From positions 1 to 64,000 of the IMG/VR virus record IMGVR_UViG_3300035208_005226: a stretch of DNA of 64,000 nt, one strand, 5' to 3'. The notes beneath the pieces were generated by a model, which did not search any database, was not told the origin of the DNA, and worked only from the letters and a program-made list of their open reading frames with translations. The position numbers were made by a program, and so were the translations under genes. This document shows, piece by piece, positions 489 through 39,713 of this stretch. The DNA comes from a virus. Taxonomy: Duplodnaviria; Caudoviricetes. Positions within the stretch are counted from its first letter, which is position 1, and each line of letters starts with the position of its first letter.

Positions 489-1322
489 ATGAACATTCAA
501 TACCGAGACAAAGAATGGTTGCAAACAAAATACCTCACAGAAGAGTTAAGTACTTATAAGATTGCAGAAATCTGTCAAGTTGATGATGAATGTATCCGCA
601 AATGGATGATAAGATTTGAAATACCAAGGCGCAAAGCATACATTGCTAATTACTGCAAATTTAATGAGGATCTAAATAATTTAATTACGGGATCAATGCT
701 TGGCGATGGTTCGCTATCTTGGGGTTACGAAACTGTATCAGCATATTATTCGCTATCTAGCAAGTATAAGAAGTATCTGCAGTACGTTAAATCTGTATTT
801 GAAGATATTTCCAACATTAAAACTCGTGGCTCGATTGCAAAATATACTAATGATTTGGGAACTTGGTATGTTTGGCAAACGGGTTATTACAGAGGCTGGT
901 TTCCTGATCTACGCAGATTGTGGTATCCTGGCAATAAGAAAATCATACCTAATAATATCAAATTAACGCCCGAATGCCTACGAACTTTCTACATTGAAGA
1001 TGGCTGCCTCGGTATAAATTGGAAAATTCAACGCATAGAATATGTTTCACTTGCCGTTAATAACTTCACATTTGATGATATAGCAAAATTAATACAAATG
1101 ATGGCATTAGAATTAAACATTCCATTTAATGACATTAAAATTAACAAGAGTTGTAAACCAAATCAATATAACATAGTAATTAACAAACGTGCAGCAATAC
1201 GAGCATTCTTTGATTACATAGGATCATGCCCAAGTAAGATTATAAGTTGTTTTGGATACAAATGGCCTGTAATCACTGAAGATGAAATCACATATAATTT
1301 TAGGAGTTTTAAAAATGGTTGA
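489..1322 (+). CDS. Free-standing LAGLIDADG homing endonuclease with N-terminal HTH
   Basis: Two LAGLIDADG-like motifs (LITGSMLGDGSL; CLRTFYIEDGCL) and an N-terminal YRDKEWLxxKY...IAEIC HTH-like segment. Confidence 0.85.
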   Translation: MNIQYRDKEWLQTKYLTEELSTYKIAEICQVDDECIRKWMIRFEIPRRKAYIANYCKFNEDLNNLITGSMLGDGSLSWGYETVSAYYSLSSKYKKYLQYVKSVFEDISNIKTRGSIAKYTNDLGTWYVWQTGYYRGWFPDLRRLWYPGNKKIIPNNIKLTPECLRTFYIEDGCLGINWKIQRIEYVSLAVNNFTFDDIAKLIQMMALELNIPFNDIKINKSCKPNQYNIVINKRAAIRAFFDYIGSCPSKIISCFGYKWPVITEDEITYNFRSFKNG

Positions 1323-5269: not shown

Positions 5270-5593
5270 TCATTTCATTATGTTTGTAACGATAAACTGA
5301 GTGGATAAGTTGTCTACGCAGTCTGTTCGTATATAATACATGGAAATATCTAATGGACGATCTGATGTATATAGCCATACGATTGCCTTTGATTCTGTAT
5401 ATGATTCTATCCAATGGGGAACTATAATGTTATGGTGTATGAAATATATGCCGTAGTATTTATGATGCATCATAAGACACATTGGAAGAATCAGTCTGAT
5501 ACTTTCATCAGAATAATAGTTTGATCCGTCAAAAAATATGGTTTCTTTGTTTAATATCCGGTCTTCTACCAGTCTATCCAATATGATGTTCAT
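5270..5593 (-). CDS. Hypothetical protein
   Basis: ORF with ATGA overlap to the upstream ATPase gene. Confidence 0.5.
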   Translation of the reverse strand: MNIILDRLVEDRILNKETIFFDGSNYYSDESIRLILPMCLMMHHKYYGIYFIHHNIIVPHWIESYTESKAIVWLYTSDRPLDISMYYIRTDCVDNLSTQFIVTNIMK

Positions 5594-22135: not shown

Positions 22136-23661
22136 TTGGTTCACCTTGGGATTTAATTGGTTCTGGGGTTTTATGGATAAAGTTGCCTTCCGAGTCAAAC
22201 ATTTCAGGATGTGTTTTTTTAAGCCATAATTCAGATCTTTTCCTGTGGATCTCTGAATATTCTATCCAGTGTTTTTTATGGAGTGGTGGTATGATAAACG
22301 GCAGAGTTAGGGATCCCGGGTGTGCTTTGTCTACGCTAAATATCCAGGATAATTCCGAGTTGGCGTCATTAAATTCTGGGTTTCCCATGGCTCTGTTTAT
22401 CATAAGAAATGCTGCATTTAGGAATACCAGGTCCCCCCTGGTAATCCGTATTGTTTTTACCACGTCTTTTAGCGTTGATCTTGGATCGACTGGTGTGTCT
22501 CTTGCAGGTTTAATCATGTTGTCGCCTCATGAGTTTATCTGAGAATTGTTTGAATCTGTTTAGCAATCTTACTGTTATATTTCCTTCAACACAGTTTAAC
22601 ATATTACGCAGACATTCTTCACATATGCGGGGATATTCGCGGTGATCGATTCTATACTCGTCCATATCCCAGAATGATGTAGTGTGGACGACTCTTGGCT
22701 GTATGTTTATTGAGATGTCCACGTAATGATATAGTTTGCGGCCACATGCATTACAATATATGGGATCATCTGGAATTTCCTTGATTTTACTCAAGTCGAT
22801 TACAGATGCCATGCACAGGTTACCAAATGATTTTTCCCCCATGTTTTAGTCCTCATAGTATAGTCGAACAAAGTTTAATGTGGTGTTGCCGGGGTGTTCT
22901 CCTTCCTTTATCCACAGTCGATACTTTGGCCTCCCGTAATATTGGATGTGTTGTTTTAGTAGTCGCTGAACCATTTTGGATATATAGTTCATTGAGTAGT
23001 CTTTTCCGTTCGATGCCTTCATCCAAGAGTTTATGCCTGTTCTTACGTAAAGGATTTCATTGCCTTTTTTCTTGATTACTATGTGTTTTACACTTGCAAC
23101 TTCGATTTGTTTTGTTAGTTTCATAAGAAATCACACCGGAATATTAGTTTTAGATTTGTTGATCGTAATGTCGGGTTTCCATTTATCATGCTATATTTTC
23201 CTCATTGGGTTAATTTGTATGTAATTTTTTGCCTTATTGTATCATTCTTCGAACTTTGTTGAGTGAGGACAATGTTCTGGGAATGGACATATCCCGGCTT
23301 TAATTTTTTCCTGGTCGTCTGTAGATAGTTCAGTGTCGTTCTGTAAGATGCATTCTGTTAATTCACATGCCATTTTTTCTCCGAATTGCTCATTTATGTC
23401 TGATATGATAGATCCTAATATGAGGTCATATGACTGTTTTATTAGGTTTGCTGTTTTTAATTTGTCTATACTATGGTTTATGTATGGAGATACGTCAACC
23501 ATCATGGCAAATGTGTCAAATTTACCAGTTTTTGTTCTATACCAGAATGCTGTCTCATATGAGAATGGCGCTGTCTGGATTATTGTGCTGAAGCTTGTGG
23601 ATGTCATAATAGATCATCAGATATGTGGATTTACTGATTTCATAGTGTTACCGCTTGCGAT

Positions 23662-23693
23662 TGGCGGGAATGGGGTTTGATCCCACTCCTGCC
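23662..23693 (-). ncRNA. tRNA minihelix-like hairpin (acceptor stem plus T-arm only)
   Basis: Minus strand GGCAGGA-GTGGG-ATCAAAC-CCCAT-TCCCGCC-A. Could also be an ordinary hairpin. Confidence 0.35.
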
Positions 23694-23888
23694 TATTGTA
23701 TCTCCCTGGAGAAGAAAGAAATGAAAAAACATCGGACCTATGTTGTCCCTACATAGTTTAGCCTCCGTGCCCAGAGTAAAGATTATGTGGGACTGAACCC
23801 ATCATAACCTCCCACATATTTTCTACACCCAGTGATTTTCTGCTCTGGAATTTTTGTTCCGTCATTGCAGGAGTCAATTGAAAATATG

Positions 23889-24128
23889 TTATACGTTGAA
23901 TATTGCAATGTCATCTGCAATATCTGCTGATTTCTTTAGTTCTGCTCTTACTAGGGTTCTTGAGATGTTTTCAAGTTTGTTTATTTTCTGCTGAAGTTCT
24001 GTAATAGTTAGTTCCGTTTCTTTTATTCTGTCTTTGAGATATGACAGTTCATTCTTAAGATTTTCAATTTCTGGATCTGGTTTTATTTCAGATATATAAG
24101 ATGTTAATTGTGGTAACTTTTTGCTCAT
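23889..24128 (-). CDS. Coiled-coil hypothetical protein
   Basis: Heptad pattern IENLKNELSYLKDRIKETELTITELQQKINKLE. Confidence 0.6.
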   Translation of the reverse strand: MSKKLPQLTSYISEIKPDPEIENLKNELSYLKDRIKETELTITELQQKINKLENISRTLVRAELKKSADIADDIAIFNV

Positions 24129-24190
24129 TGTGGTTCCTCGGTTAGAATTCTGTTTATTATCTTATTTATAGTATTGGTTTCGTTAAGATA

Positions 24191-24316
24191 TGTCGATTGT
24201 AGGATTTGAACCTACTTCTGTGGCTTGAGACCACCGTCTTTACCAATCTAATAAAATACAAATGATAGATCTATATTTCCCACGGGCATGATTTTATTAG
24301 ACCAGACCAAATCGAC
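24191..24316 (-). tRNA. tRNA-like gene with 55-nt inverted-repeat-bounded insert in the D-loop and abnormal anticodon loop (central UCA)
   Basis: Acceptor GTCGATT/AATCGAC+A, D-stem GTCT/AGAC, arm GTGGT-CTCAA-GCCAC, T-arm GTAGG-TTCAAAT-CCTAC. The insert at 24247-24301 is closed by an 11-bp perfect stem. Confidence 0.65.
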
Positions 24317-24343
24317 AATGGGAATTGTTAACATTCTTTGAAA

Positions 24344-24399
24344 TGGCACCAGTGAGATTCGCACTCACGTAGCCCTACGGCGGCAGATTTTGAGTTTGT
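24344..24399 (-). pseudogene. 3' two-thirds of a tRNA-Leu(CAA)-like gene
   Basis: CTCAAAA loop, TCTGC, long variable arm GTAG-GG-CTAC, T-arm GTGAG-TGCGAAT-CTCAC, TGGTGCC-A. No recognisable D-arm. Confidence 0.6.
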
Positions 24400-24520
24400 T
24401 GTTCTCTGGTAACAGGCTGACCCGTCGTGGGTCGATTTAAGCTGACTTTACAGACACCCTCATATGAAGCAATTAGTCGCTACACGCTGCTGGTTCTTCA
24501 TAGTTTCTGATACCAGAGAT

Positions 24521-24576
24521 AACCAGAATCGGGGATCGAACCCGAACGGCGCTACATGTGCCAACCCACTTCCGGT
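24521..24576 (-). ncRNA. D-armless mini tRNA-like element (56 nt)
   Basis: ACCGGAA-GTGGGTT-GGCAC-ATGTA-GCGCC-GT-TCGGG-TTCGATC-CCCGA-TTCTGGT-T. Confidence 0.55.
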
Positions 24577-24600
24577 TTTTGTTATAACTCATCCTGATGA

Positions 24601-24648
24601 TCGGATGTAGAGGGTTTGAACCTCCATTGATCTCATATCAAACATCCG
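24601..24648 (-). ncRNA. D-armless mini tRNA-like element (48 nt)
   Basis: CGGATGT-TTGAT-ATGAG-ATCAA-T-GGAGG-TTCAAAC-CCTCT-ACATCCG-A. Confidence 0.55.
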
Positions 24649-24735
24649 ATAGGCTGATTGTTTTTATAGAGGTATCAACCTATGAATTTAACCTCTTTTT
24701 GATTCAAACGTCTTTAAATCTCATCCATTTCTGGA

Positions 24736-24820
24736 TAACCGAATAGTGGAATTTAACCACAATTCAATCAGACTTATGGAGGTCTTACCCCTGATTTGAC
24801 CCAGGGATAAGATTATTGTT
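24736..24820 (-). pseudogene. Degenerate tRNA-Met/Ile(CAT)-like element with extended D-arm hairpin
   Basis: AGAC-CTCCATAA-GTCT arm, GTGG-TTAAATT-CCAC T-arm, 11-bp hairpin TCTTATCCCTG/CAGGGGTAAGA. Acceptor stem pairs poorly. Confidence 0.35.
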
Positions 24821-25018
24821 ATTTGCGACAGGAAGTTGAGTAAGTTTCCTGTATGAGTTATATTTGCGAAGGGTATCAGTCTGATGAGGATAAAATGTTT
24901 GTACTAAGTAGGTGCATTCGATGGCTTGTTTCCGTGTCTTGTGGTCCTCCTGTAGTTGTTTGGCCTCACCAAGATGTGATTATTGGATCACCGGCCAAAA
25001 AAGTTTGAGTTAATAAGG

Positions 25019-25309
25019 TTAATAAGCTCTGCTTATTATGTAATTCGACTGAGCCACAACTTCTGATGTGTTTGTTGTCAGGTTGTTATAGATGGTCAGG
25101 GTTGCAGCAAGAGATGCCTGTTGTCCTGTAACATAAAGTACTGATTGGTTTGTGATGAACTCACCATAGTAAAGTGGTGTCGCCCCACCTGCAATAACCA
25201 GGGACTTTGATGTTACGTTTATGGTCTGATTGGTATCTGCCATTGCGATACTAGATAGCATCAGTAATGTTGCTATCAGAAGAACTATGTAAAGCGCTTT
25301 TGTCTCCAT
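25019..25309 (-). CDS. Small secreted protein with N-glycosylation sequons
   Basis: Signal peptide METKALYIVLLIATLLMLSSIAMA; sequons NQT, NVT, NQS, NLT, NTS. Confidence 0.65.
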   Translation of the reverse strand: METKALYIVLLIATLLMLSSIAMADTNQTINVTSKSLVIAGGATPLYYGEFITNQSVLYVTGQQASLAATLTIYNNLTTNTSEVVAQSNYIISRAY

Positions 25310-32409: not shown

Positions 32410-34070
32410 GATTGCGTTCTGTTGTATTTAATGCTGTGGTTTTCGGTAGGAGATGACGGATTTGGTGAATTGAATGGTGAATTATGAAATGCGGTGGGTG
32501 ATAAGTTTTGGGGCAATTTTGAGGTTATTGTGAGATGAGTTGATGCGCTGTTTAAATATGGTTAGGGAATTGTGGCAAGTGGCTTGCCATTAGGTATTTA
32601 ATTGTTTTGAATGGTGTTATATATGTATTAGGTTCAATCCTTACAACAACACTGATAAAATAGTAATAAGATTTGGTATAATTAATTCTCTTTTCAACTC
32701 AAAAATGATAATGTAATGATGTTCTGTATAATTTTTTATTTGGTTTTTACCTTATTGGGTTAATTGTCATGATAGATCATGTGGGATATGATTGGGGGAT
32801 AGTTTGGGCTTTGTTTCCGGTTAATGTTTTTTGGTGGGATATACTGGGTTAATTTTTTGATTGCGGCTTAATTATGCCTGATGTATTATATGGTAACACT
32901 GCAATATAAGTAAAATGAAGGAATCGAAAAAAGGGTTATTGGCAAAAGGAGAGCATACCTTTATCCGATTGCGCCTCATTACTGCCAGGGATTCAAAATC
33001 GTTAGCCAAAACGTTAATATCAGTTTCCTTCTATTCTATCCTGACCGATAGGTTTATGTTGTGGTAATTTTGTCCGGAAATGAGGGTTAAGTGGGCGGCG
33101 AAAACACAAATATAACATGTAGTGGTACAAAAGTTGAGATTTAGTTTAAAAAATATGAAAAAAAGTTTAACACTAATTTTTTTTTAGTGTGATTTTGTTA
33201 TACTTTTGAATCGGGGTTCAATTTGGCTTTAATATTAATACTTTTATTTAAATATGGTTTATTTAATGATTTATGGAGCGCACACGCATCGTGATGAAGC
33301 CGGATATCGATTTATCTACGTTGGTTTTGTAATATAGTTTGTGATGGATAAAATAGGCGCGAGTCTGGCGTGGTGTTGCGCGTGTGGAAAATGGTTGGAT
33401 AGATGCTAACTCAATGTTTTTTGAGTTAAGTTAAGTTTTGTTTTCGCTTATTTGATACCGCACTTTTTTGAGAAAATTTCAATTTTTGTAGTATTTATAT
33501 GTTTGGGATGATTTCGGAAAATGTAGAATCGTGATAGATTTGTGCTACTAATTCAATTTTATATTCTACTGATGATTTAAATCTGGATTGGTGAAATAAG
33601 TGAGATACGGATGCAACTAGTTGCAACTGGCAGAATGGGCTTGGATTGAAATAAGGACAGAATGGGCGTATTTTCCAGTGGAAATAGTGGGAGTGTGACG
33701 TTAATTATAGGTCGGAATGATGAATAAGCAGTGTATATGCCGTTTCTTGACTTGTCCGGACTGGTTGACAACTATTTTGGGGCTGATTTGGGCTTGGTTT
33801 TTATTTTTGATTTAAAGCCGCGCTAATGTAAAACATGGCTGGATTGGTTTAACTTATAAAGCATGGCTATTGCTGGGGTAGATTGAAGAATGCGGCTTTA
33901 GCGCGTTAGCTATCGCTATAATAATTGCGCAAACTGGTTTTTGATGAATCAGGTGGTGTTAAGTATATATACTTAACAAAATTGCAGTAACACTTATACC
34001 AATTGGTATTAGTGTAGTGTGTTAATAATTTGTGTATTTTTTTTACTGTCGTATTATTTGATTAAAAAAT
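32410..34070. other. Long AT-rich, essentially non-coding region (candidate origin/terminus)
   Basis: No credible long ORF. Contains a 20-bp palindrome GTTAAGTATATATACTTAAC near 33958-33977, hairpin ACACTAA-TTTTTT-TTAGTGT near 33170-33190, and strong G-over-C skew. Confidence 0.55.
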
Positions 34071-34275
34071 TGTTATCTGAAGGATCTTGTCCACTGGTAT
34101 AACCTAGTGAGTGATGTGTTTACCTCCACAATCTTTTTATGTATTGAAATTAGGCTGTCAATACGACTCCTATTCATTTTTCCGTCACAATTACACTTTA
34201 TTTGTGATATAATTGTGCTCGACTTCTCAAACTCCTGTTCGATCTCCTCAAACAGGTAGTCCTCTATGATTGTCC

Positions 34276-35004
34276 TCATTGTATAATTCCAATAAGTTTT
34301 AAATACTTGGCCTCATCGCTTTTCAGCAACTCATTGACCACTTTTGGCTTATGTTTTTGTTCTCCATAACAACGCTTACATAGCCTGCATGCACCAATAC
34401 AATTGATATTTATGTCATTTTCAATTGCAAAGTCTGCTGTGAATATGTTGAATGATGCCCGCGACAGTGGATGCCTGTCGAAGTCCACATCGTTTATCAT
34501 CGGGTTAGAATGAACAAACGTGTAGTTTGAGGGCATTTTGCTTTCAACTCTCTCAATTATGTCTGGATTTTTAGTCCACGATGTACATGTTGCATAGTTT
34601 ACAACAGAACATATGGCAAAATCCACAAGAACATCTCGTTCGTCCTGATAATCTCCATTCCAATTAGATCTCCAAGTAAGATCATTATTTAAATGAAAGA
34701 CAGGAGGATGATCATATACATCTTCCGGGGACAGATCTCGGTTGCGTTGTAGTGCCTGTCCAACAGCAGGATATATTTGATTTATCCGTGTTGCATAGCA
34801 CTTTTGGCAAATACATCCTGGTATTTCGTGTCTGGGTTGACATCTGTCGGTCATCGGCCGACCAATTGCACGCTTTCCAAACATCTTCCCGGTCATCGTG
34901 CTCCAATGAACGCACCCAAGGTCATCAAAAAGTTTCTCCTTTGGGAGGATGTTATAGATGTTCTTCTTGAGAGCAACCTCTCTACTAATTATGGTTGTTT
35001 TCAT
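34276..35004 (-). CDS. Phage gp88-like Cys-rich (Fe-S/radical-SAM-related) protein
   Basis: MTGKMFG...C...CICQKCYA...WRSNWNGD...CIGACRLCKRCY. Start at 35004 follows a GGAGAAG RBS. Confidence 0.5.
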   Translation of the reverse strand: MKTTIISREVALKKNIYNILPKEKLFDDLGCVHWSTMTGKMFGKRAIGRPMTDRCQPRHEIPGCICQKCYATRINQIYPAVGQALQRNRDLSPEDVYDHPPVFHLNNDLTWRSNWNGDYQDERDVLVDFAICSVVNYATCTSWTKNPDIIERVESKMPSNYTFVHSNPMINDVDFDRHPLSRASFNIFTADFAIENDININCIGACRLCKRCYGEQKHKPKVVNELLKSDEAKYLKLIGIIQ

Positions 35005-35018
35005 TTCTTCTCCTGGGA

Positions 35019-35369
35019 TCAGAATTAACCTCATTTCCCAAGAGAGTCCTATTTTTGGAGCAATGAACCAAAAAATAAGAGAATTTATCGATCTACTACA
35101 ACTAAAGGTGCTGCCATACACGCAGCATCTTCAAATCTGTAGTGAACGACATCAGAACCAGATGTTATAAGAACAGTTTCTCCACAGTATGGACATATAC
35201 TGTGAGCATTGCAGTCTGTAGTGCCATGTGCATATACCCAAAATGTTATATTATAGGCTTTTGTTATCAATCCATACTGGCAGCTTGGGCATAAAACTGC
35301 CCCGGCACCATATATTTCTATTTCTTCTTTCATGTTTTCTTCTCCAGTAGGCTCAGAATTAACCTCATT
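35019..35369 (-). repeat. 17-bp direct repeat in gene leaders (35019-35035 and 35353-35369)
   Basis: Plus-strand TCAGAATTAACCTCATT occurs twice, each just upstream of a GGAGAAG RBS on the minus strand. Confidence 0.85.
35085..35333 (-). CDS. Zn-ribbon small protein
   Basis: CPSCQ...CPYCGE. Confidence 0.6.
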   Translation of the reverse strand: MKEEIEIYGAGAVLCPSCQYGLITKAYNITFWVYAHGTTDCNAHSICPYCGETVLITSGSDVVHYRFEDAACMAAPLVVVDR

Positions 35370-35602
35370 GCCAAAAGTTATTCAACAACTATACAATAGG
35401 ATACAAATTGATAGTATCCATGGGATTAGAACCAAAATGGTTGTGGTGTGGTTTTTCATATAATTTGATCGTTATCCCTTAACCTTACTTGACAAGCCAT
35501 AAGGTATTTCATGATCTGTTCCGATGTATCGATGTTCAATGCTTCTTCTGGCGAATTGGCCTCAACATCGGCGTAACTGTGGTAATAGATTCTAAATCTC
35601 AT

Positions 35603-35728
35603 TTAATCAACGCTCCAGTCAAATTCATTGTCGCAGTTGTGACAGATGAAGTGGATGTAACCAGATCCACAGCTGGTGTCTTCTAGGTTCTCATCTTCTC
35701 CGCAATAAGGACATGTTAATCTAATCAT
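35603..35728 (-). CDS. 41-aa Zn-ribbon microprotein
   Basis: Hand-translated MIRLTCPYCGEDENLEDTSCGSGYIHFICHNCDNEFDWSVD; ATGA-coupled to radC. Confidence 0.55.
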   Translation of the reverse strand: MIRLTCPYCGEDENLEDTSCGSGYIHFICHNCDNEFDWSVD

Positions 35729-36165
35729 ATGCATCCTAGTCTTCTTAACGATGCTATCCCTGCCTTTGCCACTATTATGTGGTCTAGCAGTTCTATTCCA
35801 ATAATCTTACCAGCATTGACAATCTGCTTGGTAACTTCTATGTCTGCACTGCTTGGTGTGAGACAGTTGCTTGGGTGATTATGCACAATAATTATGCTGT
35901 GTGCATTATCCATTATTGCTTCCCGGAATACCTCACGTGGGTGGACCAATGAATGATTCATCAATCCTTTGGTAATGATTCTGCACCTGATAACCTTTGA
36001 ATCAGCACCAAGAGTCAGTACCAAGACGTGCTCCTGTTTTTGTCCAGATATCCTGGATACCTGCTTATATGCCAGGATATCTTCAGGAGATACAATAGTT
36101 CTCCTGCTGTCTGCCGTGTATTCTGACCTTACGGCTTCATACACAGCCTTACAGATGTTTTCCAT
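35725..36165 (-). CDS. radC: RadC-family JAB-domain protein
   Basis: QEHVLVL, HPREVF, HNHPS, SSADIEVT, LLDHIIV. Confidence 0.93.
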   Translation of the reverse strand: MENICKAVYEAVRSEYTADSRRTIVSPEDILAYKQVSRISGQKQEHVLVLTLGADSKVIRCRIITKGLMNHSLVHPREVFREAIMDNAHSIIIVHNHPSNCLTPSSADIEVTKQIVNAGKIIGIELLDHIIVAKAGIASLRRLGCI

Positions 36166-36229
36166 TTCTTTTCTTCTCCAGTGGATAGGATTGATTACCT
36201 ATCCAGATCCGGGAAAAATAGAAGGAGGA

Positions 36230-36586
36230 TTATAGAGATTTAGCCCACTTCAGCAATGCAGTATAGTTATTGCCATATCTATGATCTATATTATCAGACA
36301 GACCGTATGAATCGCAGACTTCAAGTAATAATAGTTGATCCTTCATCACTTCTTTAATTGGCTCTCCACACGTCTTTGATGCATTAGACACACCTGTATA
36401 CGATAAAGATGACAAATCTATGTTTCTTACTATAACTAAGTATTTGCCGTTTGATATGTTATCACAGCAATCTTGCATATTACAAAATTCAATGATCGTG
36501 TAACATGAACATCCATCGTATCTATACCATTTTCCGCCATAGTCCTTCCAGTTCACGTCTCCTGTTAGAAACTTGAATTTTTCCAT
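36230..36586 (-). CDS. Hypothetical early protein
   Basis: ORF with GGAGAAAAGAAATG leader; FLTGDVNWKDYGGKW. Confidence 0.65.
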   Translation of the reverse strand: MEKFKFLTGDVNWKDYGGKWYRYDGCSCYTIIEFCNMQDCCDNISNGKYLVIVRNIDLSSLSYTGVSNASKTCGEPIKEVMKDQLLLLEVCDSYGLSDNIDHRYGNNYTALLKWAKSL

Positions 36587-36836
36587 TTCTTTTCTCCATA
36601 CCCTAGATGCTTACTCTAGGGATGGAATCCTCTATCCGGATTGAACCGACTTCTAAAAAGTAGAGGGTTATTCTCTCATCAGATATCGATTCATTTCAGT
36701 GTCTTCAGTTCCATCATCATACTGGACCATTGCCCAGTAATGCTCCCAATCCTTGCCATATCTAGATCTTATAACTTTACCATGAAGACCGCATTTAGGA
36801 GAGAGTGTGTATTGGTTTACAACTCTCGTTCCAATC

Positions 36837-37280
36837 TTAATCATCTGCTTTTACCATCCTTGGCTTTCTTGATGCCGCCGGACTATGCTTCTGCTCAATC
36901 TTGATTATCATAATCAAGAATTCTAATGATGCAAAGACGGTCACCGGCGGGACCACATACATACACATGGTAAGTGGATTCTGGGTATACCAGACACTTG
37001 CCACATTGAATGCAGTCGATGCTGCTGTAGTTGCTACCACAATAGCCCACGGGAATATGGTATTCTCCTTGAGCATACTGAACCTGATAACAGTGAGGCA
37101 ACCAATCACCATGAACAAGTCAAGACATAGAGGCCACAGATAGGATAGATATGATAATCCGTGTTCTAGCCCCATTATTACCAGGCTGCTGTAAGACAGG
37201 GTGAATGCAGCAATACACACTGCAATCAGTCCTACAGTGACTACATCAGCAATTCTCTTGCTGGATTTCGTTAGTTTCAT
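36837..37280 (-). CDS. DUF2637-like multi-pass membrane protein
   Basis: AAFTLSYSSL...YLWPLCLD...STAFNV...VVPPV, with about 4 TM helices. Confidence 0.7.
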   Translation of the reverse strand: MKLTKSSKRIADVVTVGLIAVCIAAFTLSYSSLVIMGLEHGLSYLSYLWPLCLDLFMVIGCLTVIRFSMLKENTIFPWAIVVATTAASTAFNVASVWYTQNPLTMCMYVVPPVTVFASLEFLIMIIKIEQKHSPAASRKPRMVKADD

Positions 37281-37346
37281 TTCTTTTCCTCTAGGGATAA
37301 CAGAATGTTCTGTTACCCAATCTAGGGAATTAATGTCTTAAAAAAG

Positions 37347-39057
37347 TTAGATTTCATTCCTAGCACTTTGGATCAATGCTTCTACATTGATCGATAATGC
37401 TATGGTCTTAATTTTCTCACAATCTTTTCGGATTGTTTTCATAGTCTTGACAGACAGTCTTGTGTTACCGAACGCTTCAGTCTTTGTGAGTAGATTCTCA
37501 CAATATCTGATGTCATTGACTAGACTGTCTATTGTAATAACTCCAAGGAGATCACCACTGTTTTTCCTAGTTGTTCTCTGTCTAGATACAACTGATAATA
37601 CGTGATTCTCCAGGGTATCACACAGTGCAATAGTTGTTTCTGCCAGATCTAATCCAACATTGATCTGATTTTCTAGATCGATGTGGTATTCAGTCAGAAA
37701 TTCTACTGCCTTTGCAAGGTCGTCCTTTGAGACCTTAACTGAATTGAGTTCTGCTGCCATTTCTTTCTCCATCCAAGTTACTGCCTGGTGCAGGCATATC
37801 AGTCATACATGGGCTGACATGCTATCTGCCCGTTAAAAAATTAGAGTGATAAGGTCTACATTGTATAAAACTTATCAATTACTTTCCATGCTTTCCTTCT
37901 ATTGCCGTGTTTTGTATAGAATTCTACCAAGTCGATTGAATGACCGATAAATTCTTTAAACCTATCATTTTCTGGTAGCAAAGCGTACATATTCCGTAGA
38001 TATGCAACCTCTGTTTCTAGTTTTCTTCTCATTACTTCTCCAAAAATAAGGGTTAGTAATCGTCTTCTTCACAAAGACGACGATCTCTTTCTACTTCATA
38101 GCAATGGTCCTCATAACCGGACCAAAAGATGTCTAATATCTCTCCATCAGACATCCTTTCGTATTCTTCTCGCTTTTCGTCGGTATCTGCATTATCTGCA
38201 AGATACTCTCGATACTCGTCTACATTGCAGTTAATCGTTTACTTCACCTCAAGCTGTTGTCTTGCATACTCAAGTGCAATCTTTGCGTTGTCAATCTTAC
38301 TCTTGAAGTCAGCAATATCACTGATATCACCGTGTATGTCCATACTTCCCCCTTTACCAGGAGTGCCAATCCTAAGCACATCCTGTTGCTTGACAAGTGT
38401 GGATTGTGATCCATGCACCTGTATTTCTCGGTCTTCCATTTTCTTCTCCAGGGACATCAGTCTAGCATGCTGATGTCCTATCTGTGTTAAAAATGGGTTG
38501 ATTTAACCCATTTGCCTTCTATTACAAAGTCTAATGAGTGCTGTTCTACTATCTTCTCTATAGTAAGATGGATGCCATTGTATGACACCACATCTGCAAG
38601 CTTAAGCCTTCTTGAGGCTTCCTTGATTGTTACAGGCTTAACAAGCACTATATCGTTGAGCTTCTTTGAAATGCTGTATTCTACATACTGTTGCTTCACA
38701 GCAAGTTTGCTATGAAACTTGACTGCTGCTTTCTTTGAGGATACAATCATATACCCCTTCAAGTTTCCATTCATTTCTTTCTTTTCTCCAGGGATAGCAG
38801 GTTGTCATCTGCTACCCTATCTGGGTTAAAAAGGATTAGATGTTAGGCACAAAGTGCCTTCCATCTATGCTGCACCCTAATGGGTGTGTGCATGTCATTA
38901 GACCCGCCGCACAGCAACCAGTGCTTTTGCCGCAGTGATACCCACACGATCTTGTGTCGTACGCCGGCCCATGCCAGTAACACATAAAACATGGGTTCGT
39001 AAATTTATCACCGCATGGTGCTACATACACCATGTCGAACTTCTTTTCTGTTTTCAT
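37347..39057 (-). other. Run of small early hypothetical genes (37347-37760, 38239-38439, 38487-38774, 38836-39057)
   Basis: Each is preceded by a GGAGAA-type RBS; starts adjusted to the RBS. Confidence 0.65.
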
Positions 39058-39481
39058 TTATTTTTCTCCAGGCATGACAGATTGATTCTGCCATGCTATC
39101 TGGGAAACGATGAGAGTTAGGTGTGTACTAACTCCCTGACTATTTTACCCACAGTGCGATACTGTAGGTAAACGTCTAGCCAGGTGTTACCCTGACAGTA
39201 TTCTACCTTCTTGCCACCGTTAAACATCTCTATGGTTACTCTCCACACAGAGGTGCTACATGATGCTAAGTAAGCATCTAAAACCAACTGCTTCATTTAA
39301 TCAGCCCAATACATCCCACCCATAATGCTATGTTCATCAATACCATGTTGAGTGCAAATAACCACTCAATCTTAAGATTGTATTCTCGTCTTGTCATGTT
39401 GTTCTCCAGTGATACTCTGGCTATATGAATGGAAGAAAAAAAGCATCTATATAGCCTCATAATATCACAAATCATCCTCAC

Positions 39482-39713
39482 CTTCTACCCGGATAAAAAA
39501 AAATTTCACTAAATCTACCAATTATTATAAAAAACAAAACATATATATCGTTATTATATATTGCAGTCGAGTTTATCACCTATCTTACCCACATTATGTT
39601 ATGGGATGTAAAAAGCCGAAAAGGCCGAAGAAATAATTTCTTGATATTATCACTATTTTTGCCGGGGTTTCGTTACGCAATCATTATAATGCTGGACATC
39701 CATACATTCGTGT
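39482..39713. promoter_or_regulatory. Divergent promoter region between early (minus) and late (plus) blocks
   Basis: Strand switch; AT-rich TATA-like tracts (AATTATAAAAAA, CATATATATC, TTATTATATA). Confidence 0.45.

Follow-up and report, generated by a model that had tools for sequence, protein, structure and literature searches.

Bulged hairpins at ribosome-binding sites in a series of early genes of an uncultured tailed virus: a candidate intercistronic RNA lock

Background

RNase III sites R0.3 to R1.3 lie between the early genes of phage T7, and similar sites are found in the early mRNA of the Bacillus phage SP82. These few, mutually related sites are irregular hairpins whose internal bulge region is asymmetric. 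The hairpins described here, which we call family A, resemble them in occupying the spacers of consecutive early genes on one polycistronic transcript, near the next ribosome-binding site (RBS). Unlike the T7 and SP82 sites, family A elements are shorter (17-21 bp when the outermost helix, h, is counted), have a fixed pair of bulges of 3 nt and 1 nt around a 4-bp helix and hold the Shine-Dalgarno sequence (SD) inside the structure. Their likely host is archaeal, and cleavage is only a candidate process here.

Intercistronic hairpins that occlude an RBS are known from prokaryotic operons and RNA phages, where, as in family A, the SD and AUG of the downstream cistron are paired with sequence adjoining the upstream stop codon (PMC12548453). 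Those hairpins are idiosyncratic singles, whereas family A is multi-copy, has conserved bulges and includes one copy away from a start codon. The PeSLs of T4-type phages are likewise repeated intergenic elements with an SD and a start codon at their end. They border small ORFans of a plastic early region and sit where the genomes of close relatives differ by an insertion, deletion or replacement (PMC2839356). However, a PeSL is a DNA composite of promoter and terminator, about 100 bp long and with a conserved sigma-70 promoter (PMC2839356), while family A lacks a promoter motif and what is kept is RNA base-pairing with covariation. Finally, the archaeal bulge-helix-bulge (BHB) motif in its hBHBh' form has in common with family A a central helix of 4 bp followed on the 5' strand by a 3-nt bulge, the flanking helices h and h' and unpaired bases in a pseudo-twofold arrangement (PMC4090602, PMC6379350). 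Family A differs in that its second bulge is one A and in its place, the leaders of viral mRNAs.

Results and discussion

Six hairpins between early genes

The window, the whole stretch of 64,000 nt that was analysed, comes from a tailed, uncultured virus that probably has a methanogen host. Six hairpins were present on the minus strand of its early region, at the coordinates given by an earlier note on this DNA (Table 1), and they are real rather than chance structures. Copies of family A begin a few nucleotides 3' of the stop codon of one small gene and end at the start of the next gene, with the stop codon 1-21 nt (typically about 13) upstream of the helix H. From the outside inwards come h, a single unpaired A bulging from the 3' strand, the 4-bp helix H, a bulge of 3 nt with A first on the 5' strand, then h' and the loop. 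H had 4 bp in five of the copies and 3 bp plus an A.G mismatch in the copy at 38485. The 5'-strand bulge was ATA in four copies, ATT in one and ATC in one. The inner helix h' had 8-11 bp in the six copies, and opposite the 5' bulge the 3' strand was continuous, followed by the A.

The earlier note had correctly described the helix of about 4 bp, the 3-nt bulge and the unpaired A, but it drew the element too small and, through the unpaired A, no more than hinted at the third helix, h, in which the upstream T-run pairs with the spacer 3' of the SD over 2-6 bp. Nor are the inner stems unrelated to each other, as had been stated; they are diverged homologues, most of which share a basal G and a loop-adjoining CAG...CTG.

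In five of the six copies the 3' strand ran into the RBS, as reported before, with CTGG-AG or CTAG-AGG serving as the SD 8-13 nt from the ATG. The exception was the copy at 37829, in which a second small hairpin comes next and then GGAG. Within the GGAG of the SD, H takes up the first GG and the A forms the bulge, while the last G falls with the spacer in h and its extensions, where the AUG is often paired too. Minimum free energy (MFE) folds of the six copies (-19.2 to -24.4 kcal/mol) had the structure described, with h, H and h' all formed and, in four of the six, extra pairs beyond h reaching or approaching the AUG. Fold z-scores were between -3.7 and -5.8 in five copies and -1.9 in the 37829 copy. 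Since the SD and its spacer are placed in H and h, the downstream RBS is locked in a structure of -19 to -24 kcal/mol.

The early operon genes were either overlapping (ATGA) or spaced by structured spacers of this kind. These included a sibling class, family B, whose helix P1 was tested by comparing real with cross-paired flanks; a MAFFT alignment put P1 out of register.

Table 1. Intercistronic elements in the early region of the window. Energies and z-scores refer to the folds, E-values to the covariance model trained on relatives only.
Element	Position	Strand	Span of H	Structure	Downstream gene	MFE (kcal/mol)	z	E	Remarks
Family A copy 1	39061..39109	-	39103-39068	h UUUC/GAAA; H CCAG/CUGG; bulge AUA; h' GCAUGGCAGA/UCUGUCAUGC, one G.U	73 aa, 39057-38836	-23.5	-4.9	1.5e-9	
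Family A copy 2	38781..38830	-	38824-38788	H CCAG/CUGG; bulge AUA; h' GGGUAGCAG/CUGCUAUCC, G.U	95 aa, 38774-38487	-22.1	-5.5	5.1e-9	
Family A copy 3	38441..38491	-	38485-38448	H (A)CAG/CUG(G); bulge AUA; h' GGACAUCAG/CUGAUGUCC		-23.7	-5.8	1.4e-8	upstream stop UAA 38489-38487 within the 5' strand of the outer pairing; AUG 38439 paired in the MFE fold
Family A copy 4	37783..37835	-	37829-37790	H GCAG/CUGC; bulge AUA	141 aa, 37772-37347	-19.2	-1.9	7.9e-8	bulged A retained without a directly adjoining SD; second small hairpin CCAGG..CUUGG abuts the GGAG of the gene; ~90% identical to the L007 and L003 copies
Family A copy 5	37284..37331	-	37325-37291	h UUCC/GGAA; H CUAG/CUAG; bulge AUU; h' GGGUAACAGA/UCUGUUAUCC, G.U	DUF2637, 37280-36837	-21.1	-5.1	1.5e-7	
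Family A copy 6	36171..36218	-	36212-36178	h UUUUUC/GAAGAA; H CCGG/CUGG (G.U); bulge AUC; h' UGGAUAGG/CCUAUCCA	RadC-like, 36165-35725	-24.4	-3.7	3.4e-6	
Family B element	36587..36670	-		P1 CCUCUA/UAGAGG; T-run and AGAAGU, then a 3-bp hairpin with conserved loop UUCAAU; P3 CCAU-CCCUAGA...UCUAGGG-U-AUGG-AG	36586-36230				sibling class; P1 directly after stop codon 36670-36668; base of P3 holds the GG of the SD
Hairpin-less junction	38033..38057	-		stop codon, CCCTTATTTTTGG, directly GAGAAGTA-ATG	58 aa, 38032-37856				

Covariance model, covariation and distribution

A covariance model, R2, was trained on 17 copies from related metagenomic viral contigs, with no sequence from the window; close orthologues of the 37829 copy were in the training set, and none of the other five. 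In a search of both strands of the whole viral contig (76,314 bases) it found exactly the six hairpins (E 1.5e-9 to 3.4e-6), the next-best matches being the antisense of one copy (E 0.12) and one match at E 1.8. All significant matches of the model were on the gene strand.

The covariation proposed earlier was borne out in 24 copies from six contigs. In these, 85.4% of the cells paired, against 38.6-43.1% with slid partners and 61% after shuffling, and in H alone 93.5% paired against 28-41%; the percentages for H and h' are inflated because a pairing descriptor partly selected the copies, which leaves unaffected both the independent covariance model test and helix h, which played no part in choosing copies and paired in 75.4% of cells against 39-59% with slid partners. 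Both sides changed in 18 of the 20 pairs. Compensatory cells numbered 108 against 36.6 in shuffles (reached in 0 of 500), and 23 against 8.8 for h. Compensatory change did extend to the 4-bp helix, as had been claimed: all four pairs of H (columns 16-19/54-57) covaried, and the outermost was formed in 21 of the 23 distinct copies. Read as sense-strand RNA, H and h' together held 36 G.U cells against 9 A.C cells.

The first base of the 5' bulge was A and the 3'-strand bulge was a single A in 24 of 24 copies, including those in which no SD comes next (CUGC-A-CC). When the bulges were allowed any size, a 3-nt 5' bulge with none opposite was seen in 12 of 15 strict matches. One copy, at 5543 in the related contig L006 (GUAG-A-UC), kept h, the A, H, the bulge and h', although the next ATG is 107 nt away. 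Outside the 24-copy alignment, a copy found by the covariance model places TAA-type and GAUC-type bulges nearby in family A. A kink-turn of the L7Ae-binding kind was considered and rejected, as the pairs following the bulge are Watson-Crick and not tandem sheared G.A/A.G (columns 23-53: 18 GC, 2 CG, 2 UA; columns 24-52: 11 GC, 10 CG).

No significant family A copy was detected in L008, with 43% terminase identity, or in L009 and L010, with 30-31%. Rfam returned 0 matches at the gathering score in the window and, in 34000-39700, only a spurious one (E 0.54). A DNA match to the region was not found among public phage records, and a scan of IMG/VR with the consensus pattern gave six matches, none of them with the structure. 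A scan of metagenome contigs for the 3' half of copy 4 recovered the source contig of the related genome L007 and two more contigs of the same clade, besides two chance matches in coding sequence. That family A is a new RNA motif family, with about 29 copies and without an Rfam match, is well supported. In the best explanation, its members are RNA structures of a single family that act in cis on a polycistronic transcript of the early genes, for which the minus strand is sense.

Transcription signals

Oligo-T is an intrinsic termination signal in archaea, and a run of T5-T8 followed almost every stop codon in the region, including at hairpin-less junctions. The elements might therefore be plain transcription signals, the T-run acting as terminator and the hairpin as a terminator hairpin or part of a promoter; in family B, moreover, the T-run is not paired with the RBS. 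We consider this very improbable. For h to form, one RNA must carry both the T-run side and the SD side, so selection has acted on read-through transcripts. At the elements, scoring gave no terminator-like site on the sense strand, sigma-70-like matches numbered 21 against 18.7 expected by chance, and between T-run and hairpin there is neither room nor motif for BRE/TATA. A bacterial-type intrinsic terminator (hairpin plus U-tract) was rejected, since the T-run precedes the hairpin and purine-rich sequence lies 3' of it. Identity with PeSLs was rejected as well, the sigma-70-like matches being at chance level and alignment A3 containing no promoter-like block besides the T-run and the SD.

Cassette junctions

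The suggestion in the earlier note that the sites modularise the early region as cassette junctions gained support, as mosaic junctions of related genomes fell exactly at the T-run before the hairpins. Four such junctions were found. Two are between L006 and L007, whose blocks of 92% identity stop precisely where the T-run ends on its 3' side; one belongs to a relocated cassette with the GCAG copy; and in the fourth the 58-aa gene of the window is inserted, relative to L007, exactly between the T-run and the copy 4 hairpin. The GCAG copy is about 90% identical between the window and L007, whereas the flanking genes are 78% identical or cannot be aligned. Such a pattern could be taken to mean that family A is a linker at the DNA level, a PeSL-like boundary whose flanks (stop codon, CCYTATTTTT, hairpin) promote recombination and shuffle ORFan cassettes, for which the PeSLs of T4-like phages offer a precedent (PMC2839356). 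As an account of the hairpins this is improbable. The G.U covariation on one strand and the pairing of the T-run with the spacer after the SD point to selection at the RNA level, the shared sequence is only about 10-15 nt, and junctions at gene borders are also expected from selection after illegitimate recombination.

Candidate host

The names of homologues and a single MAG bin make Methanomicrobiales the likely host order. Among named homologues, those that best match the viral dCTP deaminase come from Methanomicrobiales, and a terminase relative was found on a contig binned to a Methanospirillum MAG; in IMG/VR a terminase relative was not found. When 20 kb of the window was compared with 401 genomes of the phylum of this MAG, only short, weak matches at chance level were obtained, and there was no exact match of spacer length. 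Look-alikes of the ERCC4 nuclease were mostly viral and uninformative on the host. The MAG that contains the 76-kb viral contig itself was rejected as host: its GC content is 64% against 39% for the contig, and it is without EndA. The contig was mis-binned, and the genome of that MAG thus says nothing about the host.

Comparison with bulge-helix-bulge motifs

The geometry had been described as BHB-like, which is right as to polarity. The order of parts is h-H-bulge-h' on the 5' strand and h'-H-A-h on the 3' strand, so each bulge lies 3' of H on its own strand. The same position of the bulges, 3' of the central helix and with flanking helices, is described for the pre-tRNA motif (PMC4090602), and the central helix is exactly 4 bp as in the canonical form. 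However, the canonical motif has two 3-nt bulges, one per strand, whereas the 3'-strand bulge here is one invariant A.

In the candidate host order, to which the Methanospirillum MAG belongs, all 41 sampled genomes had EndA, and BHB motifs occur in archaeal pre-mRNA and pre-rRNA (PMC6379350). In combination with the polarity, the 4-bp helix and the 3-nt bulge between flanking helices, this would suit hairpins that serve the host EndA as BHB-type substrates, with the cut in the AUA bulge and ligation as an optional further step. We regard this as unlikely to be correct, the second bulge being 1 nt in every one of the 24 copies. In the candidate hosts EndA is a protein of about 337 aa with its two domains in tandem, the alpha'2 type, which is reported to be strict for canonical BHB (PMC6379350, PMC4090602), and an EndA domain was not found on the viral contig. 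In addition, excision at both bulges would take the SD out with the 'intron'.

An intercistronic lock on the ribosome-binding site

The bulge-4 bp-bulge arrangement and its two unpaired A's have been kept despite the near-complete divergence of h', from which we infer a recognition site for a trans-acting, structure-specific factor. Judging from the sequences, we tentatively suggest that family A is an intercistronic RNA lock on the RBS, most likely read by a structure-specific nuclease or another candidate factor. An endoribonuclease would be the likeliest factor, either an RNase III-like enzyme of the host or, with lower probability, EndA. By cutting at the module it would part the cistrons and free the downstream SD, and the downstream mRNA would retain h' as a 5' hairpin that protects it, following the logic of the RNase III sites between the T7 early genes. 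At the DNA level, the T-run before each hairpin is, on this view, the seam where related viruses have exchanged gene cassettes.

Of the 41 genomes sampled from the candidate host order, 39 had the RNase III domain PF14622 above the cut-off; four archaeal control genomes lacked it. A bacterial-type, T7-like RNase III site takes about two turns of double-stranded RNA, interrupted by an internal loop or a bulge where the enzyme cuts, about 10-12 bp from the loop. With h' of 8-11 bp, the bulge-H-bulge part and h of 2-6 bp, the family A duplex totals 17-21 bp, at the low end for RNase III, and for the classical enzyme so short and interrupted a duplex counts against a nuclease. Among the small early proteins, no Pfam family pointed to an RNA-binding protein or a nuclease.

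Family B, in its P3, and a further class, family C, bury the SD with different geometry, which counts against recognition by a factor. Orthologous DUF2637 genes are preceded by family A in some genomes and by family B in another. Given these siblings of other geometry and the exchange of A and B, the common selected property may simply be occlusion of the SD.

A close rival, which we consider possible but doubtful, is pure translational coupling, a well-known mechanism (reviewed in PMC12548453). The terminating upstream ribosome would melt the outer pairs and the hairpin would only hide the SD and AUG, making translation of the downstream gene dependent on that of the upstream one; no nuclease or protein factor would be involved, and the bulges would tune stability or come from a common ancestor. 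With the stop codon 1-21 nt before H, a terminating ribosome would cover, or come to just short of, the 5' strand of h and its extensions, and the SD and often the AUG are paired in the folds. The stop codon itself is inside the pairing in the 38485 copy, and in most family B copies it is taken in by P1. The structured spacers between those operon genes that do not overlap, and the interchangeability of hairpin classes before orthologous genes, also agree with coupling. However, at the typical gap of 13 nt the footprint of a terminating ribosome would extend to the edge of h only, leaving H out of reach. Nor does coupling account for the constancy, in about 22 diverged lineages, of the two unpaired A's, of a bulge of 3 nt and of an H of 4 bp, or for the copy that has the whole geometry 107 nt from any start codon.

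A more specific version of the factor-read lock, rather unlikely in our view, is that BHB-derived 'half-sites' (a 3-nt bulge, a 4-bp helix and one flipped A) punctuate the polycistronic early mRNA of a methanogen virus, with a host EndA or RNase III-like enzyme cutting once, in the A-first bulge. If this were true, the RBS would be released and each monocistronic mRNA would receive a 5' hairpin cap. The archaeal splicing or processing machinery would then be seen, for the first time, to mature viral mRNA, and the element would be a portable 'insulator' that allows ORFan cassettes to be shuffled at the T-run.

Conclusions

Post-transcriptional control in archaeal viruses is almost unexplored, and burial of the RBS of successive early genes gives family A a concrete, testable function. 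As a nuclease site, it would reveal how polycistronic mRNA is processed in an archaeal virus and which host enzyme is borrowed for this; as a coupling device, it would be an unusually modular one. Either way, the unit of T-run and hairpin marks the seams of ORFan cassette exchange and bears on the evolution of the early region, and it offers a natural design for an RBS insulator.

Confirmation of the hairpin family

The six minus-strand hairpins (36174-39107; hereafter family A) that an earlier note had placed at the ribosome-binding sites of consecutive early genes were all present on the gene strand at the positions it gave, and folding reproduced the architecture described (-19 to -24 kcal/mol). 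Compared with dinucleotide shuffles, z-scores were between -3.7 and -5.8 in five of the six, and -1.9 in the copy at 37829. Five hairpins adjoin a Shine-Dalgarno (SD) sequence (CTGG-AG, CTAG-AGG) 8-13 nt upstream of the ATG. In the sixth, at 37829, another small hairpin intervenes before GGAG.

The covariance-model search was the strongest test and was independent of the window. Related viral contigs, obtained via terminase homologues of 54-60% identity, have the gene order of the window, and hairpins of this type occur in their own early spacers. A model trained on 17 copies from these contigs alone, without window copies, was run over both strands of the complete 76-kb contig and matched just the six window sites (E 1.5e-9 to 3.4e-6), with close orthologues of one of the six window copies in the training set and none of the other five. 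The next-best matches had E values of 0.12 (antisense of one copy) and 1.8. Rfam contained no match to the hairpins. Readings of family A as a K-turn, an intrinsic terminator or a sigma-70 promoter failed.

Features of the window
Feature	Position	Strand	Remarks
Family B element	36587-36670	minus	one window copy, same operons as family A
Third spacer class	35334-35400	minus	variable stem closing conserved 17-nt loop
Third spacer class	35005-35085	minus	variable stem closing conserved 17-nt loop
Run of small genes	~39480 down to ~34070	minus	mostly ORFan; divergent from terminase operon
Open frame	38050-38238	minus	between 66-aa gene and 58-aa gene
Weak tRNA match	24191-24259	minus	21.7 bits
Weak tRNA match	24601-24648	minus	19.3 bits; without D and anticodon arms
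LAGLIDADG_2 gene	489-1322		free-standing
Large terminase			Pfam MJ0330_N
Tail-tube-type protein			
Tape-measure-like ORF			3,330 aa
Family B DNA polymerase			
ERCC4 nuclease			
Cas4-like nuclease			
dCTP deaminase			
Thymidylate synthase			
RadC			

Structure and covariation

Family A extends beyond its first description. In most copies the end of the T-run, just 5′ of the central 4-bp helix (H), pairs with bases that follow one unpaired A of the 3′ side (UUUUUC-CCGG with CUGG-A-GAAGAA, UUUAGC-CCUG with CAGG-A-GUUGAA, UUUUAC with GUAAAA). The layout is thus an outer helix (h), a bulged A, H, a 3-nt bulge, an inner helix (h′) of 8-11 bp and a loop. Pairing statistics were computed on a 24-copy alignment, the copies having been selected without use of h, whose signal came mainly from the two pairs adjoining H.

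Pairing and compensatory change in family A
Measure	Observed	Control
Cells paired, whole structure	85.4%	38.6-43.1% slid; 61% shuffled
Pairs changing on both sides	18/20	14.1 in shuffles
Compensatory cells, whole structure	108	36.6 in shuffles (0/500)
Cells paired, H alone	93.5%	28-41% slid
Cells paired, h alone	75.4%	39-59% slid
Compensatory cells, h alone	23	8.8 in shuffles

Since G.U cells outnumbered A.C cells in H and h′ (36 vs 9) and the significant model matches lay on the sense strand in every case, the structure is selected in RNA. The selected RNA is a read-through, polycistronic transcript, as h can form only if the T-run side and the sequence past the SD belong to a single molecule. 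That the elements are plain transcription signals is very improbable.

Sibling spacer elements

Family B was also found in five related contigs (L002, L003, L004, L006 and L007). Its helix P1 measured 6-10 bp in 11 of 11 copies; cross-paired flanks averaged 4.9 bp. P1 usually contains the upstream stop codon, and it encloses a T-run, the conserved sequence AGAAGUA and a 3-bp hairpin whose conserved UUCAAU loop is T-loop-like. The base of a further hairpin 3′ of P1 (P3) holds the GG of the SD, as in family A. The loop of the third class, AAUGAGGUUAAUUCUGA, lies directly upstream of the SD of the genes at 35333-35085 and 35004-34276. A hybrid in L002 (5811-5874) joins a family A stem to a GGUUAAUUCC loop. 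Among orthologous DUF2637 genes, those of the window and L004 have family A, but that of L006 has family B.

Cassette seams

The earlier note had also suggested a cassette-recombination site. Exchange seams at the T-runs support the cassette idea. Recombination at the DNA level as the main role is improbable. L006 and L007 share two blocks of 92% identity whose breaks coincide exactly with T-run 3′ ends, and beyond each break lie a genome-specific hairpin and its gene. The GCAG-type hairpin (the type of the 37829 copy) and its gene occupy different locations in the two contigs, and the window has a 58-aa gene inserted exactly between that T-run and this hairpin. The family B seam falls between P1′ and P3. 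The stop codon and T-run are thus part of the upstream unit, and the hairpin and SD part of the downstream unit. In distal h, the pairing of U-run with A-rich sequence is generic and would be preserved through any such shuffle. Similar seams are known from the promoter-early stem-loop (PeSL) cassettes of T4-like phages (PMC2839356); unlike these, the hairpin cassettes of the window and its relatives have no promoter.

The open frame in the table has no ATG, GTG or TTG near its 5′ end and begins ATT AAC right after the upstream stop; its DNA is 76-78% identical to a called 61-aa gene of L006 and L007.

Viral contig and candidate host

The viral contig (C44; 76,314 bp), whose first 64 kb make up the window, is mis-binned, since it has ~39% G+C and its 6.2-Mb bin 64%. 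A few other contigs of the bin (e.g. C215, C221, C224, C226 and C242) also appear low in G+C, and the bin may be a mixture. The window codes for a tailed-virus module. The best named homologues of its dCTP deaminase (44-47% identity) are all from Methanomicrobiales (Methanocorpusculaceae, Methanomicrobium, Methanoregulaceae). One terminase relative (30%) comes from a contig assigned to a Methanospirillum MAG and another is in a Syntrophaceae bin. No exact spacer-length match was found in 401 genomes of the phylum of the Methanospirillum MAG. An archaeal methanogen is a likely, but not proven, host.

The terminase of L007 (10001-12679) contains an intein with a LAGLIDADG endonuclease and is 892 aa long; the window terminase has 514 aa. 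ARAGORN detected no tRNA in the window; the two sub-threshold matches at 23400-25200 are degenerate tRNA-like units.

Occlusion, and possible recognition and cleavage

In the fold, H takes up the GG of GGAG, the following A forms the bulge, and h contains the last G together with the A-rich spacer; in four of the six MFE folds, additional pairing outside h extends to or near the AUG. The initiation region of each downstream gene is thus locked in this fold. The stop codon of the upstream gene is 1-21 nt (typically ~13) upstream of H. Ribosome-driven translational coupling is a somewhat less likely but close rival to recognition by a factor, and its main argument is that an SD-burying hairpin is the property common to all spacer classes. 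Against pure occlusion, the bulge geometry is conserved even without an SD or far from an ATG. The first base of the 5′ bulge and the 3′-strand bulge are each A in 24 of 24 copies, also in lineages without a following SD (CUGC-A-CC). A model-found copy at L006 5543 (GUAG-A-UC) keeps all features 107 nt from the next ATG. With bulge sizes left free, 12 of 15 strict matches had a 3-nt 5′ bulge and nothing opposite. This geometry points to recognition by a factor, and not to occlusion alone. The leading but tentative reading is that the bulge-4 bp-bulge module may be where a structure-specific factor acts, a nuclease being the likeliest candidate.

The likeness to archaeal bulge-helix-bulge (BHB) motifs seen in the earlier note was borne out in polarity, the 5′ strand running in both from outer helix through central helix and bulge to inner helix, but not in bulge size: the motif needs two 3-nt bulges (PMC6379350), and one of the two in family A is a single A. 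The splicing endonuclease EndA, which cuts BHB motifs, was present in every genome sampled from the candidate host order, with two tandem domains in a ~337-aa frame. This is the alpha′2 type, described as strict in two reviews (PMC6379350, PMC4090602), and no EndA of the virus's own was found on the viral contig. EndA specifically is improbable as the acting enzyme.

An RNase III domain (PF14622), unexpected in this order, exceeded its cut-off in 39 of the 41 genomes sampled there and in none of four archaeal controls (M. jannaschii, H. volcanii, S. acidocaldarius, M. acetivorans). The frames span ~155-376 aa, and mini-III-like and longer forms may both be present. RNase III-type cuts occur between the early genes of T7. 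Given the gene in 39 genomes, a cut of this type would be possible in the candidate host.

Family A is real and new, an RNA family with covariation by which the ribosome-binding sites of successive early genes are locked.
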